NCBI GenBank assembly: GCA_038861545.1 | Contig: JAWCCZ010000003.1 | Coordinates: 32,001-96,000, forward strand | Reading direction: 5' to 3' | From: Thermofilaceae archaeon | GTDB lineage: Archaea; Thermoproteota; Thermoprotei; Thermofilales; Thermofilaceae | Length of the DNA: 64,000 nucleotides | In this document: positions 9,275-18,703 of the stretch, in pieces | Layout: each line of letters opens with the position of its first letter | How positions within the stretch are numbered: the stretch's first letter is position 1 | Notes under the pieces: generated by a model | Database searches by the model: none | Told to the model about the DNA's origin: nothing | The model's input: only the letters and a program-made list of their open reading frames with translations | Translations under genes and position numbers: made by a program

Positions 9275-9895
9275 ATGGATCTAACACTTAGGTCATCGGA
9301 TATAAAAAGGGTTTTTGCTGTAAAGGCATCGCTCGCTTGCTCTGGTGGAAAAATTAACGCTAAGGCACTAGCCTCACACGGCAGGCTGGATGTAGTAGCT
9401 AGGGCTATACTAGCAGCTCTATCTTTAAGAGCTGGTACTAGGTTAGACACAGTTTTTTATGCTACCCTCGAAGGATTACCTCACCCGCCGATAACTATTG
9501 AAGTTAGAGGTTGGGAACTTAAGCATCCGATAGGAAGTGAAGAAGATATTGGAAATTTACTGTCAAGGCTTTTCTTGGGTCATCACATTGAAGGGGTGGA
9601 TGCTTGGGAGATGAGTTTTAAGGAATTAGTTTCGGAGTTGGTGAATTCGTTTGGGTCAAAACAAGTTATTTACCTACATGAAGCAGGCGAAGATATATCC
9701 AATCTAAGCTTAGAGGGTAAAATAGCAGTATTACTCGGTGATCATAAAGGCATCGATAGGAAAACTGAAACGTGGATTAAGTTCCTGGGAATACGTTGGT
9801 TTAGCCTTAGTCCTCAACCGTACTTTACCGAGCATTGTATTTCTTTTATCAATTATCTGTTAGATGAGGGCATACGTTTACTGAAGCGTTTTTAG
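9275..9895 (+). CDS. trmY: TrmY-family SPOUT methyltransferase (tRNA pseudouridine-54 N1), paralog A
   Basis: GRLDVVAR, YLHEAGEDI, LGDHKGI, SLSP, HCI. Confidence 0.82.
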   Translation: MDLTLRSSDIKRVFAVKASLACSGGKINAKALASHGRLDVVARAILAALSLRAGTRLDTVFYATLEGLPHPPITIEVRGWELKHPIGSEEDIGNLLSRLFLGHHIEGVDAWEMSFKELVSELVNSFGSKQVIYLHEAGEDISNLSLEGKIAVLLGDHKGIDRKTETWIKFLGIRWFSLSPQPYFTEHCISFINYLLDEGIRLLKRF

Positions 9896-11472
9896 AACAA
9901 CAACTTCGGTCTGATTTCTATCTCAACACCAAGCCTTCTGGCGGCCCGCTCGATTTTCCTACGAGGTTTCCCTACTACGTAATTATAATATTCTTCGTCG
10001 ACCAGTACAATTACTTTGTTGCCTTCAATAGAAGCTATTTCAATATTACCTTCAGGGAAATATTTTTTCAAGATACCAGCTAAGCGGGTCTTAACAACTT
10101 CTTCTCCGCGAACGGCGCCTCTTCCCTTTATGGGAACTACGAAGGTTCTATCTCCGAAGACATACAATTCATATTCTGGTTCTCCCGACAAGTAATCCTT
10201 GACCACGACTACTGGTCTAGCTAGCTCAGCTTCTCTAAGACCATGTGGGACTTTTACTACAGTCTCTAACTCATAAACCTTCTTTACCTCGCCTTCAGCT
10301 ATAAATATCACCGTGTCAATTATAGAAGGTATCATACCTAACTCAATTCTACCTATAAAACGCTGTATAGCATCTATGGGACTGGTCGCGTGCACAACCC
10401 CGACCATTCCTACACCAGCTAGCCTTAAATCAGAAAAGAGTTCGAAGTCGCTTGTGTTCCTCATTTCATCAAAAAATGTGTAATCTGGCCTGGAGAGCAG
10501 AAGAATATCGTGGAGCTCCTCAGAAGAGGCATAGTTTTTAGAGTACTGAGTTACATCGCTAGGCAATTGCATGTCACGAGGCGATTCTATAGTCTTCACA
10601 ATTTTACCTTTCCTGCGGTAGTATTCTGCTAACGCTTGGGCAAACGTGGTTTTACCCATACCCGGTGCACCGGCAATAAGTATACCCTCTGCCTGTTTTT
10701 CGAGCCGGTGCATAAGTCTGGGAGGAAGACTATAATCCTCTAAGCTGAGCCTTACTAGGGGTCTTACTGCAGTCACCTCCAAACCATCCGATAACGGGGG
10801 TCTAGTAATCACTATCCGGTAGCTGCCAACCTGTAATATTATGGATCCTGGTTTATCGCTTTCGATGAAAGCTGAATGATTACTTTTAGCATACTCTAAA
10901 ATTTCCTCTATAATATTTTCTAATTCCTCTCGGGTCATTAATTCCTCACTCAGTTGCACAAAACGCCATTTACCTGGTTTACCTACTTTAGCACGAGGCT
11001 GAACCCCCTCTTTTAGATGGATAGACATAGTATCATTAGAGAAAAACTGATCTAGCACAAATCCCTCACCTTTAGTTGGTTCGAGATGCAACGTTTGAAT
11101 GCCAGAACTTTTAGCAGCTTCCGCACAAATCTGGTCTGATGTTATTAGAGTGGCGCTAAGCTCCATTGCAAGTTCTCTAATTACTTCATCAGGTGAAAGG
11201 TCCCTTAACCATCTTAGCCCTTCTGGAAGATCTCTGACGTATTCAACACTAATAGAGTCTCTTTTAGCTATTATAAGCTCTCTGATCTGACTTAGTTCCC
11301 TTAATCCTACGAACCCCCTGTGGCTCCCCTCCCGAGCTAATCTCTCAAAATACGAAATAACAAGTGAATGAAGAATTAATCTACCAGTGATACTCCCTTC
11401 TTGCAATGCTTTTCGTAAAGCTCCAGTGGCTATTACGGTAGTATCAGCGATGTAAAGCTCTTCATCAGACAT
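9892..11472 (-). CDS. PIN-domain/VirB11-like ATPase with KH-like tail (PINA family)
   Basis: N-terminal ADTTVI PIN, GAPGMGKTT, RPDYTFFDEMR, GVVHA. Confidence 0.9.
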   Translation of the reverse strand: MSDEELYIADTTVIATGALRKALQEGSITGRLILHSLVISYFERLAREGSHRGFVGLRELSQIRELIIAKRDSISVEYVRDLPEGLRWLRDLSPDEVIRELAMELSATLITSDQICAEAAKSSGIQTLHLEPTKGEGFVLDQFFSNDTMSIHLKEGVQPRAKVGKPGKWRFVQLSEELMTREELENIIEEILEYAKSNHSAFIESDKPGSIILQVGSYRIVITRPPLSDGLEVTAVRPLVRLSLEDYSLPPRLMHRLEKQAEGILIAGAPGMGKTTFAQALAEYYRRKGKIVKTIESPRDMQLPSDVTQYSKNYASSEELHDILLLSRPDYTFFDEMRNTSDFELFSDLRLAGVGMVGVVHATSPIDAIQRFIGRIELGMIPSIIDTVIFIAEGEVKKVYELETVVKVPHGLREAELARPVVVVKDYLSGEPEYELYVFGDRTFVVPIKGRGAVRGEEVVKTRLAGILKKYFPEGNIEIASIEGNKVIVLVDEEYYNYVVGKPRRKIERAARRLGVEIEIRPKLLF

Positions 11473-11661: not shown

Positions 11662-12003
11662 ATGGCTAATCATCGATTTAATCCTGATATATATAGGGAC
11701 TATGATGAGCTACAACAAGCGGTTCTTGAGGCCCTTCTCAAACTTATTAAAGCAACAAAGGGCTCGATGCTAACTTTTAATGCGAAAAAGCTAGCTGTTG
11801 TAGCAGGCCTCCCCACGCATCCAGTGGTACTTACCCTAATAAAGGATGTTGTAGAACAGCTGCAGGCTAAAGGTTTTGTTCAAAGAATATCCCAATCCAG
11901 CCACGGCGTTAAATATGCAATCACGCAAGATAGCCCATTATGGGTCATAGCTAAAAGTGGTGGGCAACTATTAATTCTGGAATCATTGGTAAAGGTGCAG
12001 TAG
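11662..12003 (+). CDS. Putative winged-helix DNA-binding protein
   Basis: Helical core followed by LQAKGFVQRI..GVKYAI wing-like hairpin. Confidence 0.55.
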   Translation: MANHRFNPDIYRDYDELQQAVLEALLKLIKATKGSMLTFNAKKLAVVAGLPTHPVVLTLIKDVVEQLQAKGFVQRISQSSHGVKYAITQDSPLWVIAKSGGQLLILESLVKVQ

Positions 12004-14600: not shown

Positions 14601-14879
14601 ATGAGCGAAATTGAGAGAGTATATGTAATTCCTCTGAAAAATGTCTACAGGGTACCGCTTACCAAAAGGGCTAAGGTAGCTATACGAATAATAAGGGAAT
14701 TTCTAAAACGACATGTTAAAGCTGAAATTATACGCATTTCCCCTGCAGTCAACAACCTTGTATGGTCACGGGGAATAGCCAAGCCTCCAAGGAAGCTGCA
14801 AGTGAAGGTCAAAGTAACCACCGAGGAGGGAGTCAGGGTAGCTGAAGTTGAACCTCTGGAGAGGGCCGGTAGTTCTTGA
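14601..14879 (+). CDS. rpl31e: 50S ribosomal protein L31e
   Basis: ERVYVIPL, KRAKVAI, VWSRGIAKPP. Confidence 0.96.
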   Translation: MSEIERVYVIPLKNVYRVPLTKRAKVAIRIIREFLKRHVKAEIIRISPAVNNLVWSRGIAKPPRKLQVKVKVTTEEGVRVAEVEPLERAGSS

Positions 14880-15550
14880 GTGTCGAGATAGTCTACGCCT
14901 TTGGTAACTCTAACATCGGAGTTTACGTATCAGCAAGTGATCGTTTTGCTTTGTTGCCTCCTGAAGCCCCTGAGAAGCTAGAACGTGTGCTTGAAAGAAA
15001 CTTAGGCGTGGAAATTATCAGGGTTACTATCAATAGCTCCCCCCTTCTAGGAGTTTTATGCGTTATGAATAGTCATGGTATCTTGCTCGGACGCTTGGTT
15101 AGAGAAGGTGAAATTAATATATTAAAAGAAAAACTTAAAGATTATTTAAAATTAGAAATATTAGAAGAACTAAAAGAGAATGCAATAGGTAATTTAATTC
15201 TAACAAATGATAGAGGAGCTATTGTGAGTCCGTTAATACCTCATAGTATGCTGAAGAAGATTGCTGATGCACTGGATGTTGAAGTTGTCCAGAAGGACTT
15301 TGGTGGGTCTAACCTAGTGGGAGCTATGGGGGTAGCAACGAACAAAGGAGCTCTTCTATCCCCTTTGATGACCGACGATGAGGTAGAACAAGTATTAGAG
15401 ATACTAAAAGTACTAAAGGGCGGAATCGGTACTGTGAATAAAGGAAGTGTATTTGTAAAAGGAGGAATAGTTGCCAACAGTAAGGGCGCAATAATAGGTT
15501 ACGAGACGACGGGTATAGAAGTCATGAGAATTCATTCATCTCTTTTTTAA
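14876..15550 (+). CDS. eif6: Translation initiation factor 6
   Basis: GNSNIGVY, IGNLILTND, GTVNKG, ANSKGA repeats; follows rpl31e. Confidence 0.95.
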   Translation: MSVEIVYAFGNSNIGVYVSASDRFALLPPEAPEKLERVLERNLGVEIIRVTINSSPLLGVLCVMNSHGILLGRLVREGEINILKEKLKDYLKLEILEELKENAIGNLILTNDRGAIVSPLIPHSMLKKIADALDVEVVQKDFGGSNLVGAMGVATNKGALLSPLMTDDEVEQVLEILKVLKGGIGTVNKGSVFVKGGIVANSKGAIIGYETTGIEVMRIHSSLF

Positions 15551-17332
15551 GCCCTCAATGCTGATTCGTGTACGATACTCGTCCTTAACTTCGTCAGGTA
15601 TTAGATTGGAAGGTTTATAGATGGTAAGTGGTCTTATAAGGTGGGTCACATTATTTGAAAGGCAAAGGCTGCAGATACCTCTTAATCCCTGAGCTACTGT
15701 ACCACATAACTCACAAACAGTAAATTCCAAGTGAAAAGTAACCCTAAATATCCCTCTATTCATAGCTAAACACAAAGTTTTGATTAAAGTTTCCGAGAAT
15801 AAATGTGATTTCGATGCTACCGGCCATACGGATCCTCCCTGAAGCACTCCTTGAGTTGCCCCTTCCACCGAAGCCCATTCCTCAAAACTTCTCTCTATTG
15901 AGAGTACACAACTACTGAGTGGATTAAAGAGCTTTGTCCGAGCATTTGAATAAAGTTTTTCGTCAGGCATTGATGCTGAAACATCAATGTCACTTATAGA
16001 ACGCGAAATTGACTTCCAAAATCTGTTAGCCAGTTCAATTAAATTACTTAACCTCAAGTCTCGATGATGCATTCTCATCGCAGCTTCGAAACCAGTGAGT
16101 GCTAACTGTGGACTCAAAACTTCATAGTTTTCAACTAAACCCTTTAAACGTGACACAATGCGGCCCGTGTTAAAGTGTGCGCTAAGCATTAAACATTCCT
16201 GAGCTACGTGTTCTAGGATATTGTAAGCATCTAAACCGCTCTGCTTAACTTCAACATATAAAGTAGTAAGAGGAACTGCTACTCGGATAGGCAAAATATA
16301 GGCTTTCTCCGCATCAGGCACAGGAGCCTCGGCCAGCGATATACTAGGTATTCTACCCCCTCTGCTTATTATAGAGCAGACTGGGCTATTAATTACGGTC
16401 AGCCAGTCAAGTATGCTTTCGCTCCATTCGTTAAAGTCATGAATGACGACTCCCAACCTCCTAAATCCATCTATAGGTGGCTCATTTGGATCTATTACTA
16501 CCGTAACTTTCCCAGGAGGAATTAAATTATCTATAGTTTTTAACTCCTCCTGATCTACTTTATCTATTAACACGACTATCTCATCAACGTAATCTATTAA
16601 ACGTGCAACTGTTTTTGTGATGCTATTCCTTAACTGTAAGAAAACTGTTTGAGCTCCCGTCAATGTGTAAATGGGGTTCCTTACAAAAACCAATCCTTTA
16701 AGTTGATAATCGTAAAGTGTTTGAGATATATTACGCAGTGTTTTTAAACTAATTATGTTTTCACATAACTCTTCACGAAAGCCAGAATATTCGCGACTAG
16801 CGTATGATCTGGCTAAGGCTTCGCTCACTTCAGGAGGCAAACAAATATAATCGCCTATTTTCCCTATAAGTTCTATTTCCGCTAAAAGCCCTAGAATTTC
16901 TTCACTAACTGGTTCACCTGAACTTGAAAGTTTTTCCCAAATTCTTGCTATAACTTCTTCGCTTTCATTACTGTACCCGACACCCGATTTGCGAGCGATT
17001 TCTGAAAAAGAAACGCTCTTCGGGACTCCTCTATAATCAATTAAAGTCGACTTCTTCGATTCTCCATACAATCCTCCCAGCTCACGAAGCCTGGTTACAA
17101 TCCATCTTCCGATGCTAGTCAGTTCATACAACCCTTTTTCATTTACATTTATCAACCCCGCATCTCTAAGTTTTCTGATGTGAAAGTTTAGTTTACCGCC
17201 AGTCAAATTTAATTCATGAATAAGATCGGTGAAGTTACTCGAACCTTTTGATGCTAAATGCAAAAGTATGCGAATCCTTATTTCATGTCCAACACTTTGT
17301 AAAACCCTAGTGACTTCTCTGTTTACTTCCAT
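15536..17332 (-). CDS. ArsR-type HTH fused to ATP-cone-like region and degenerate class III ribonucleotide reductase (NrdD-like) domain
   Basis: N-terminal HEIRIRILLHL..LNFHIRKLRDAGLI; C-terminal QGGSV, CELCG..CSLC and IRPLTIYKP..KDEYRTR aligning to the NrdD Zn site and Gly-radical loop but without the Gly. Confidence 0.72.
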   Translation of the reverse strand: MEVNREVTRVLQSVGHEIRIRILLHLASKGSSNFTDLIHELNLTGGKLNFHIRKLRDAGLINVNEKGLYELTSIGRWIVTRLRELGGLYGESKKSTLIDYRGVPKSVSFSEIARKSGVGYSNESEEVIARIWEKLSSSGEPVSEEILGLLAEIELIGKIGDYICLPPEVSEALARSYASREYSGFREELCENIISLKTLRNISQTLYDYQLKGLVFVRNPIYTLTGAQTVFLQLRNSITKTVARLIDYVDEIVVLIDKVDQEELKTIDNLIPPGKVTVVIDPNEPPIDGFRRLGVVIHDFNEWSESILDWLTVINSPVCSIISRGGRIPSISLAEAPVPDAEKAYILPIRVAVPLTTLYVEVKQSGLDAYNILEHVAQECLMLSAHFNTGRIVSRLKGLVENYEVLSPQLALTGFEAAMRMHHRDLRLSNLIELANRFWKSISRSISDIDVSASMPDEKLYSNARTKLFNPLSSCVLSIERSFEEWASVEGATQGVLQGGSVWPVASKSHLFSETLIKTLCLAMNRGIFRVTFHLEFTVCELCGTVAQGLRGICSLCLSNNVTHLIRPLTIYKPSNLIPDEVKDEYRTRISIEGLKKR

Positions 17333-17344
17333 GATATATAACTC

Positions 17345-18703
17345 CTACTTCCAAAATTCTTCTTTAACTAAGTAATATAACTCTTCCTCATCTTTAAACC
17401 ATTTTTCAAAACCCTTGGGCTCCTGGGGAAATTCAGAATAAATACTCCGCGCTTTATCCATATAGTTCTTCAGTTTAGTTATTTGAGATAGGAGACTCGG
17501 TTTTCTAAGTAACCTGATAGCCCCCACAAGCTTAGTAATGACAGCAGCTACAAGCTCACCTCTATAGCCGAGAGAGGATAACTCATCATCACTTACCACT
17601 CCACTTTTAACTATTAACTCAAGGTCATCGTTAGTTAATCCTTGTACGTATATCCTTACTACATCCAGCATTGCCTGTTTAATCCCATATGCATCCAAAT
17701 ACGCTTTTTGATATGGCCAAAGGTATTCCATGTCGGTTCTTCCATTTTCAAGAGCGCTTATAGTAACCTTAGCAGCATGATAACTACTAACAAGCGCAGG
17801 CCCTATTCCGCCCCCATGGAGCGGGTTAGCGGTATAGGCAGCATCACCGACAGCTATGAACCCGTTCCAAATGACACATGGTGCTAACCGTCTTGTTGGA
17901 ACAAGTCCACCCCCCTCATGTAGCACTTTACCTTTAACGCGTGTCAACTCACTAAGCAAATGTTTCTCAAACATTATACGGGGATTTGGAGCGCCTTTTC
18001 CTGCCTTGACACCCAGTCCAAAGTTTACAGTGTATTTATCTTTTGGAAACCACCACCAGTACCCTCCTGGAGCCACTTCAGCATTCAATATTATGTATGC
18101 TAAGCTGGGGTCCTGTTCTTCCTCTATTGATGCTATTACTCGATAGGCTACGTTGAAGTCTTCAAGGGGAGCTTTGTATGAAACCCACCACTCAGGTGGT
18201 AATTTTGTTCGTACTGCTGCCGTAGCACCTGTAGAATCAACCACAATTTTTGATTTTACTTCTATTAAACCTTTTTTACCGGTAACTAAAACCCCGTTCA
18301 CACGCTTTTTCTCAATTATTGGTTTTTGCACTTGATGGTCTGCTAGGAGCTCTGCACCTGCATCAAGTGCCATTTTCAAGAGTCTTTGACCAAAAGCCTT
18401 CCTATCTAAAGCGTAACCATTTCCCCATGCGGTGATATAATACTTTCTGCTAGGAGAAAAAACGCGAACTCCTTTTATAGTTCCTGTCGCATCTAATCCA
18501 ACTCGAGGGTTTTCTAATCCAACAGCTTTAAAGTGATGTTCTCCGACAGCGTCTCCGCAGACTTTCTCGCCAACCCTATCCTCGCTTTTAGTCTCAACCA
18601 AAATAGTAGAGAAACCAGCTTTAGATGCATGATAAGCAAAGAACAGGCCGCTAACACCTGCACCTGAGATTACTATATCATAATTTACTTTCAAGCTCAT
18701 CAA
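17345..18703 (-). CDS. Geranylgeranyl reductase family FAD oxidoreductase
   Basis: GAGVSG, KVCGDAV, PGGYWWWFP, VGDAA..NPLHGGGI. Confidence 0.92.
   Translation of the reverse strand: MMSLKVNYDIVISGAGVSGLFFAYHASKAGFSTILVETKSEDRVGEKVCGDAVGEHHFKAVGLENPRVGLDATGTIKGVRVFSPSRKYYITAWGNGYALDRKAFGQRLLKMALDAGAELLADHQVQKPIIEKKRVNGVLVTGKKGLIEVKSKIVVDSTGATAAVRTKLPPEWWVSYKAPLEDFNVAYRVIASIEEEQDPSLAYIILNAEVAPGGYWWWFPKDKYTVNFGLGVKAGKGAPNPRIMFEKHLLSELTRVKGKVLHEGGGLVPTRRLAPCVIWNGFIAVGDAAYTANPLHGGGIGPALVSSYHAAKVTISALENGRTDMEYLWPYQKAYLDAYGIKQAMLDVVRIYVQGLTNDDLELIVKSGVVSDDELSSLGYRGELVAAVITKLVGAIRLLRKPSLLSQITKLKNYMDKARSIYSEFPQEPKGFEKWFKDEEELYYLVKEEFWK

Follow-up and report, generated by a model that had tools for sequence, protein, structure and literature searches.

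A winged-helix protein built on a catalytically dead class III ribonucleotide reductase is a candidate regulator of ribonucleotide reductase genes in Thermoproteota

The 64,000-nucleotide stretch of a Thermofilaceae genome analyzed here (the window) encodes a 598-residue protein in which a winged helix-turn-helix (wHTH) is joined to the body of NrdD, the class III ribonucleotide reductase (RNR). Judged from its residues, this body is dead for RNR chemistry and is not decaying. The protein belongs to one large Thermoproteota family, whose members are most likely dedicated regulators of RNR genes, because family genes adjoin RNR genes of two classes, are retained in genomes that lack an active NrdD, and are accompanied by conserved boxes in RNR promoters. 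A first-pass annotation of the sequence had proposed a pseudoenzyme reused as a nucleotide-pool sensor that controls transcription. The dead but conserved pseudoenzyme holds up, with RNR genes as its most likely targets, while sensing by this copy through sites inherited from RNR is not supported, as the ATP cone, the specificity-site hairpin, and the HxHD motif are all eroded in its clade.

The features of the gene are collected in Table 1. Against an orthologue from the same genus, the gene is under purifying selection (dN/dS ~0.15 overall and 0.12–0.17 in every domain), which bears out the earlier argument that an intact frame and a kept Zn site speak against decay. Its surroundings are a housekeeping region distant from nrdD, and close homologues of its product are named from Thermofilaceae and Thermoprotei MAGs. 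In four metatranscriptomes no reads mapped to this region, its ribosomal-protein genes included. The geranylgeranyl reductase family gene, found next to it only in the Thermofilaceae-type clade, is probably co-transcribed with it; the convergent eIF6-like gene is outside the regulator system. Two further genes stand in the same part of the window. One (11662–12003, + strand) encodes a 113-aa winged-helix-like protein with no Pfam match that is kept near the regulator in other Thermofilaceae. The other (9892–11472, − strand) encodes a 526-aa protein with PIN, ATPase, and KH-like parts, the ATPase being assigned by Pfam matches, which we take to resemble archaeal PINA.

Table 1. Features of the dead-NrdD gene and its immediate neighbors, in window coordinates.
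Feature	Position	Strand	Basis or remark
Whole gene: wHTH, ATP-cone-like domain, dead NrdD barrel, Zn site	15536..17332	−	598 aa, ATG start, no stops
ArsR-like winged HTH, residues 1–90	17063..17332	−	family matches and conservation
ATP-cone-shaped domain, residues 94–160	16853..17053	−	position and predicted fold
NrdD-type barrel, residues 166–535, shortened	15728..16837	−	structure match and alignment
Finger loop without Cys	16298..16360	−	Ala334 at thiyl column
Zn site, Cys540/543/554/557	15662..15715	−	kept in 211/213 family members
Former glycyl-radical loop	15608..15640	−	Thr570 (codon 15623–15625) at radical Gly column
Geranylgeranyl reductase family gene	17345..18703	−	12 bp upstream of the dead-NrdD gene, same strand
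eIF6-like gene, convergent	14876..15550	+	3′ end overlaps the dead-NrdD gene by 15 bp; name from sequence reading

The N-terminal domain is the clearest part of the protein. Residues ~10–85 match the Pfam families HTH_24, HTH_20, DUF7347, and HTH_5 above their cut-offs, with E-values of 1e-7 to 2e-6 (ArsR-like matches PF01022, E 2e-6, and PF12840, E 2.5e-7), in keeping with the ArsR-type wHTH that had been read at residues ~1–85. The NCBIfam model for ArsR/SmtB metalloregulators, NF033788, falls short of its cut-off (36.9 vs. 55 bits). Across 213 family members, His51, Tyr69, and Gly75 of the HTH are 99–100% conserved and, together with the Zn cysteines, are the most conserved columns, while the catalytic columns vary freely.

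The C-terminal region models as the ten-stranded RNR/PFL barrel, the fold that the first-pass annotation had singled out for checking. An AlphaFold model built on 86 homologues (pLDDT 93.7, pTM 0.91) finds class III RNRs as its best structure matches, among them 8p2s with a Z-score of 24.1, an rmsd of 3.2, and 417 aligned residues. Direct sequence comparison relates only the C-terminal part to NrdD, and weakly (PF13597, E 0.006, residues 485–569; NCBIfam PRK08271, E 7e-6). The connection is made by longer relatives, which match NRDD nearly end to end with E-values of 1e-70 to 1e-85; hhalign of the C-terminal half gives a probability of 99%.

Catalytic columns were read against 22 active archaeal NrdDs, using NrdD landmarks from PMC11226230 and 10.1101/2022.04.23.489257. 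The landmarks align in the order first proposed, and the absence of the radical Gly and of a finger-loop Cys is confirmed. Arg567 of the glycyl loop is kept, but Thr570 replaces the Gly and Ile571 the next Tyr, so the RxxGY motif is missing. The Cys nearest to the thiyl column, Cys319, is not conserved, and the β-A Cys column is Thr229. The triphosphate motif HxHD reads FxRN. The specificity-site hairpin is deleted, with ~30 residues missing from the barrel, and the span from β-A to β-B is 20–23 residues in the Thermofilaceae clade vs. 50 in NrdD and the long relatives. All three nucleotide sites of NrdD (cone, specificity site, and HxHD) are altered in the Thermofilaceae form, and the long forms exceed the 598-aa copy by ~150 aa in length. 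The PxE motif, which contacts substrate in NrdD, is kept as Pro456 and Glu458. The clade conserves residues of its own in the finger loop (Pro329, Ser330, Leu333, Ala334, Pro337, and Pro339), around the former active site, and in the tail.

Profile searches reach hundreds of family proteins of 600–800 aa. Long members match the ATP cone at the Pfam level and almost all of NRDD, and the model of one long relative matches NrdD at a Z-score of 38. Of the 213 members, only 29 have Gly at the radical column; a Cys close to the thiyl column occurs in 17, and many members end before the Gly loop. In a FastTree phylogeny with long branches, regulators and active NrdDs fall on opposite sides of one branch with support of 100. 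Within Thermofilaceae, a whole copy is present in 19 of 23 genomes, two more have pieces at contig ends, and in two incomplete genomes none was found. Searches of 32 genomes from two other families of the class, f4 and f5, gave no full-length match. Databases name members ArsR/HxlR regulators or “anaerobic ribonucleoside-triphosphate reductase”. The fusion was described nowhere in the literature searched, including work on RNR phylogeny, a search that most subscription journals lay beyond. A second NrdD-like gene with a cone and with neither an HTH nor an RxxGY tail occurs in six genomes (G004, G292, G315, G317, G319, and G321) and is perhaps another dead or truncated paralogue; in G004 (L239:1677-5928) it sits directly behind the regulator.

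Genomic context ties the family to RNR genes. In family f8, one copy adjoins nrdJ in all 13 genomes tested, directly upstream in 12 and divergently in one. The five f8 genomes checked further are all amoA-positive and contain no NrdD-like sequence other than the dead-NrdD protein. Among Bathyarchaeia, nrdD, glutaredoxin-nrdD, or nrdJ lies at most 1.7 kb downstream of the regulator in 18 of 63 loci, and the other 45 copies do not adjoin an RNR gene. One Thermofilaceae genome (L308) has nrdD two genes from the regulator. The set of 80 genomes was chosen partly on earlier matches and is unfit as an estimate of prevalence. Only one RNR was detected in the genome studied here, an intact nrdD with an nrdG-like radical SAM gene behind it (contig C4 of G000); searches of this genome found no NrdJ and no NrdR (no TIGR00244 match).

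Conserved boxes stand in the RNR promoters of several lineages. In Bathyarchaeia, a near-palindrome with the consensus TACAnAATTTTATAC is common to RNR promoters and stands immediately ahead of BRE/TATA-like elements. At 20 bits or more, nearly all of its matches in 726 kb are right behind the regulator gene, and most precede an RNR operon. In held-out nrdD-type promoters of other lineages (L246–L265), 8 of 20 score at least 8.5 with this box vs. 6 of 587 unrelated promoters, two of those six being RNR intergenic regions themselves. Two genomes with nrdD behind a true nrdR lack the box. The Thermofilaceae nrdD promoter instead carries ACTTTC(G/A), followed after 18 bp by a predicted TATA-like box. 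When this genome is excluded from training, the top-scoring site in its 1.63 Mb is that of nrdD (20.1 vs. 17.2 bits; box starting at about position 100091 of contig C4, minus strand), and 8 of 12 held-out promoters of the family score at least 17, the 99th percentile of the null being 12.6. The correspondence between box and gene is imperfect. A weaker box, AATTTCG (8.5 bits), occurs at the same spacing before nrdD in three genomes where the regulator gene was not found, and a further such genome has ACTTTCA at another spacing. Some genomes with the regulator gene lack the box, and in the T. pendens-like G153, which has the gene, it scores only 6.

Ammonia oxidizers have a different conserved block before nrdJ. 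A loose pattern drawn from it was rejected, as it matches genome-wide at about the background rate; in two held-out genomes, however, the strict form precedes nrdJ. Nor was one motif found that serves every lineage: the Bathyarchaeial model fails to score Thermofilaceae or ammonia-oxidizer promoters. Autoregulation through the Bathyarchaeial box is unsupported: among 104 promoters of the regulator gene the best score is 12.6 bits and the others are below 8. The boxes are lineage-specific footprints of orthologous promoters, and another factor could bind them; the Thermofilaceae box is a candidate site, to which we infer binding by the regulator.

Two side observations concern these promoters. 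The nrdD promoters of a different Thermoprotei lineage, also with the regulator (L217, L336, L337, L338, and L340), contain a TCTTAG direct repeat ~34 bp apart that ends ~10 bp before the TATA-like box. Family f18 includes two genomes (L264:1034-3603 and L265:967-3536) in which a bacterial-type nrdR directly precedes nrdD and the Bathyarchaeial box is absent. In one of the two, G061, the dead-NrdD regulator appears split into frames of 502 and 265 aa, and replacement of the regulator by NrdR is possible.

The following scheme is proposed. The family would have arisen once, from a duplicated ATP-cone-bearing archaeal NrdD that lost radical chemistry and gained a winged HTH. In the present genome, the wHTH is predicted to bind the box upstream of the nrdD-nrdG operon on contig C4 and to set the output of that promoter, a prediction that we consider reasonably probable. 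By analogy with archaeal activators, the fixed position of the box 18 bp before the TATA-like element tips the balance slightly toward an activator over a repressor. Counting against the scheme are the distance between the gene and nrdD in this genome, the imperfect correspondence of box and gene, the many Bathyarchaeial copies that do not adjoin an RNR gene, and the eroded sensing sites, which leave the signal of the regulator unaccounted for.

What the protein might sense is a separate matter. Long relatives may use the cone to read ATP/dATP and, perhaps, the specificity site to read dNTPs. In the 598-aa copy, which has lost those pockets, the barrel and Zn domain may be a scaffold, or a ligand sensor at a remodeled central pocket lined by the clade-invariant finger loop, Glu458, Tyr461, Arg567, and Tyr572. 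Such a remodeled ligand pocket in the Thermofilaceae clade is possible. A stand-alone 187-aa protein on contig C1 of this genome (L003:1129-1692, − strand) consists of a canonical ATP cone (PF03477, E 7.5e-11) followed by an unassigned C-terminal half. Most of the Thermofilales searched contain it, as do 12 of 21 f4 genomes, which lack the regulator. The protein could supply ATP/dATP control in trans, which is conceivable because the NrdD of the lineages that have it is without a cone. A fuller proposal is that Thermoproteota regulate RNR genes by a factor, perhaps an activator, that derives from the enzyme. Its Thermofilaceae form would have shed the classic allosteric sites and would either detect a ligand where the active site once was or receive its ATP/dATP signal in trans through the stand-alone cone protein. 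Taken whole, this proposal is speculative and rather unlikely.

The likelihoods given to the preferred reading and to the two alternatives taken up next overlap in part. The first of these, possible though on balance doubtful, is that the 598-aa copy is a full NrdR-like sensor, binding ATP/dATP or dNTPs at RNR-derived sites and thereby switching its DNA binding. The cone region is central to this view. Its predicted fold appears to be kept, with TM-scores of 0.58 to an NrdR cone and 0.56 to an NrdD cone in the Atlas, and 13 of the 14 clade members share D99, R101, and G102. Together with the surviving PxE motif and the Pfam-level cone of the longer relatives, in which dNTP sensing is plausible, this is consistent with nucleotide input. 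However, at the sequence level the region does not rise above controls (hhalign probability 0.6%; iterated cone HMM 1.2 bits), and stepping-stone HMMs gave no link from the Thermofilaceae cone to the family cone except through one clade member at 15.8 bits. The clade has D(Y/F)RG where 125 of 151 long members carry the VR(T/S) motif, and Asp99, Tyr100, and Glu111 take the place of the usual basic hairpin residues; the phosphate-binding residues are gone. The “degenerate ATP cone” of the first-pass annotation is thus upheld by position and predicted fold and finds no echo in sequence. Canonical nucleotide binding by this cone is doubtful and, with the shortened β-A to β-B span and the loss of HxHD, so is dNTP sensing by the 598-aa copy.

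Somewhat less likely is a broader or re-targeted regulator, in which the family would control wider nucleotide supply, such as pyrimidine synthesis, and the eroded clade may have other targets. Genes resembling pyrB/pyrI, named from their sequences, are close to several copies (L055, L060, L134, and L139), and at four Bathyarchaeial loci the box precedes a small unassigned gene or a contig end. Re-targeting would also fit the recognition helix of the 598-aa protein, which lacks a four-residue insert of the long forms. Against this, the box-plus-TATA model picks nrdD first in this genome, with no nucleotide gene clearly next. In three Bathyarchaeia that have no RNR at the locus, regulator and box are followed by a conserved 85-aa Cys-containing gene without a Pfam match (L133:5201-5458, L134:2902-3159, and L139:7536-7793), a possible further target.

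That the protein instead acts on active NrdD directly, as a partner or inhibitor in a mixed dimer with the HTH secondary, is improbable. All Thermofilaceae searched rely on NrdD, with no NrdJ match in any of them, and the GRD-like tail is conserved, as such a role would have it. Yet in the clade the NrdD dimer interface has lost its specificity-site portion by deletion, and the HTH is the best-conserved domain. Regulation of RNR genes is favored over partnership because ammonia oxidizers without an active NrdD keep the gene beside nrdJ, and hetero-oligomerization, raised in the first-pass annotation, is for the same reason set aside as the general role of the family. An active enzyme or a decaying pseudogene is next to excluded: for all the reductase label of its relatives and the RxxGY kept in three diverged ones, no member joins an intact Cys-Arg finger motif to RxxGY, the 598-aa copy has no radical Gly, thiyl Cys, or β-A Cys and is refuted by sequence as an RNR, and its low dN/dS extends to every domain.

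If regulation of RNR genes is the role of the family, an RNR has been turned into a regulator of RNR genes, and archaea without NrdR gain a concrete candidate regulator, with candidate sites, for the control of dNTP supply. The present window contributes the eroded form found in Thermofilaceae, together with its candidate box. This form is the end of a series of erosion and is useful for asking which parts are needed. Cultured organisms carry members, including the T. pendens orthologue ABL77958.1 and WP_007551497.1 of Nitrosarchaeum koreense. An annotation also needs correcting, as relatives in aerobic ammonia oxidizers are labeled anaerobic RNRs yet cannot form the radical.

Dead enzyme folds are already known as the basis of one-component regulators. 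The present protein resembles ArsR/SmtB-like winged-helix regulators in its N-terminal domain, and differs in that the wHTH is fused to 500 aa of RNR-derived sequence and scores below the metalloregulator cut-off. With class III RNR NrdD (P. copri 8P23/8P2S, T. maritima 4U3E, and T4 1H7A; PMC11226230) it shares the barrel fold at a Z-score of 24, the Zn site, the C-terminal GRD-like tail, and the position of the cone. Unlike NrdD, it has an N-terminal wHTH, lacks the radical Gly, thiyl Cys, β-A Cys, NxN flap, and HxHD, and belongs to a clade that has deleted the specificity hairpin. The archaeal factor aCcr1 of Sulfolobales, a ribbon-helix-helix (RHH) protein, binds and up-regulates an RNR promoter (PMC9976892). 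The dead-NrdD protein is likewise predicted to act at an RNR promoter, whereas aCcr1 is a small cell-cycle regulator with many targets and an unrelated fold. The closest functional parallel is NrdR, the bacterial RNR repressor composed of a Zn ribbon and an ATP cone (PMC9110341). Like NrdR, the family would be dedicated to RNR genes, an ATP cone occurs in the dead-NrdD family, and boxes are found in RNR promoters. In contrast to NrdR, the family is predicted to bind DNA by a winged HTH and not by a Zn ribbon, and it carries a whole dead NrdD body, for a length of 600–780 aa vs. 140–220 aa. The 598-aa protein itself has no NrdR match, an eroded cone, and a candidate box upstream of the TATA element.
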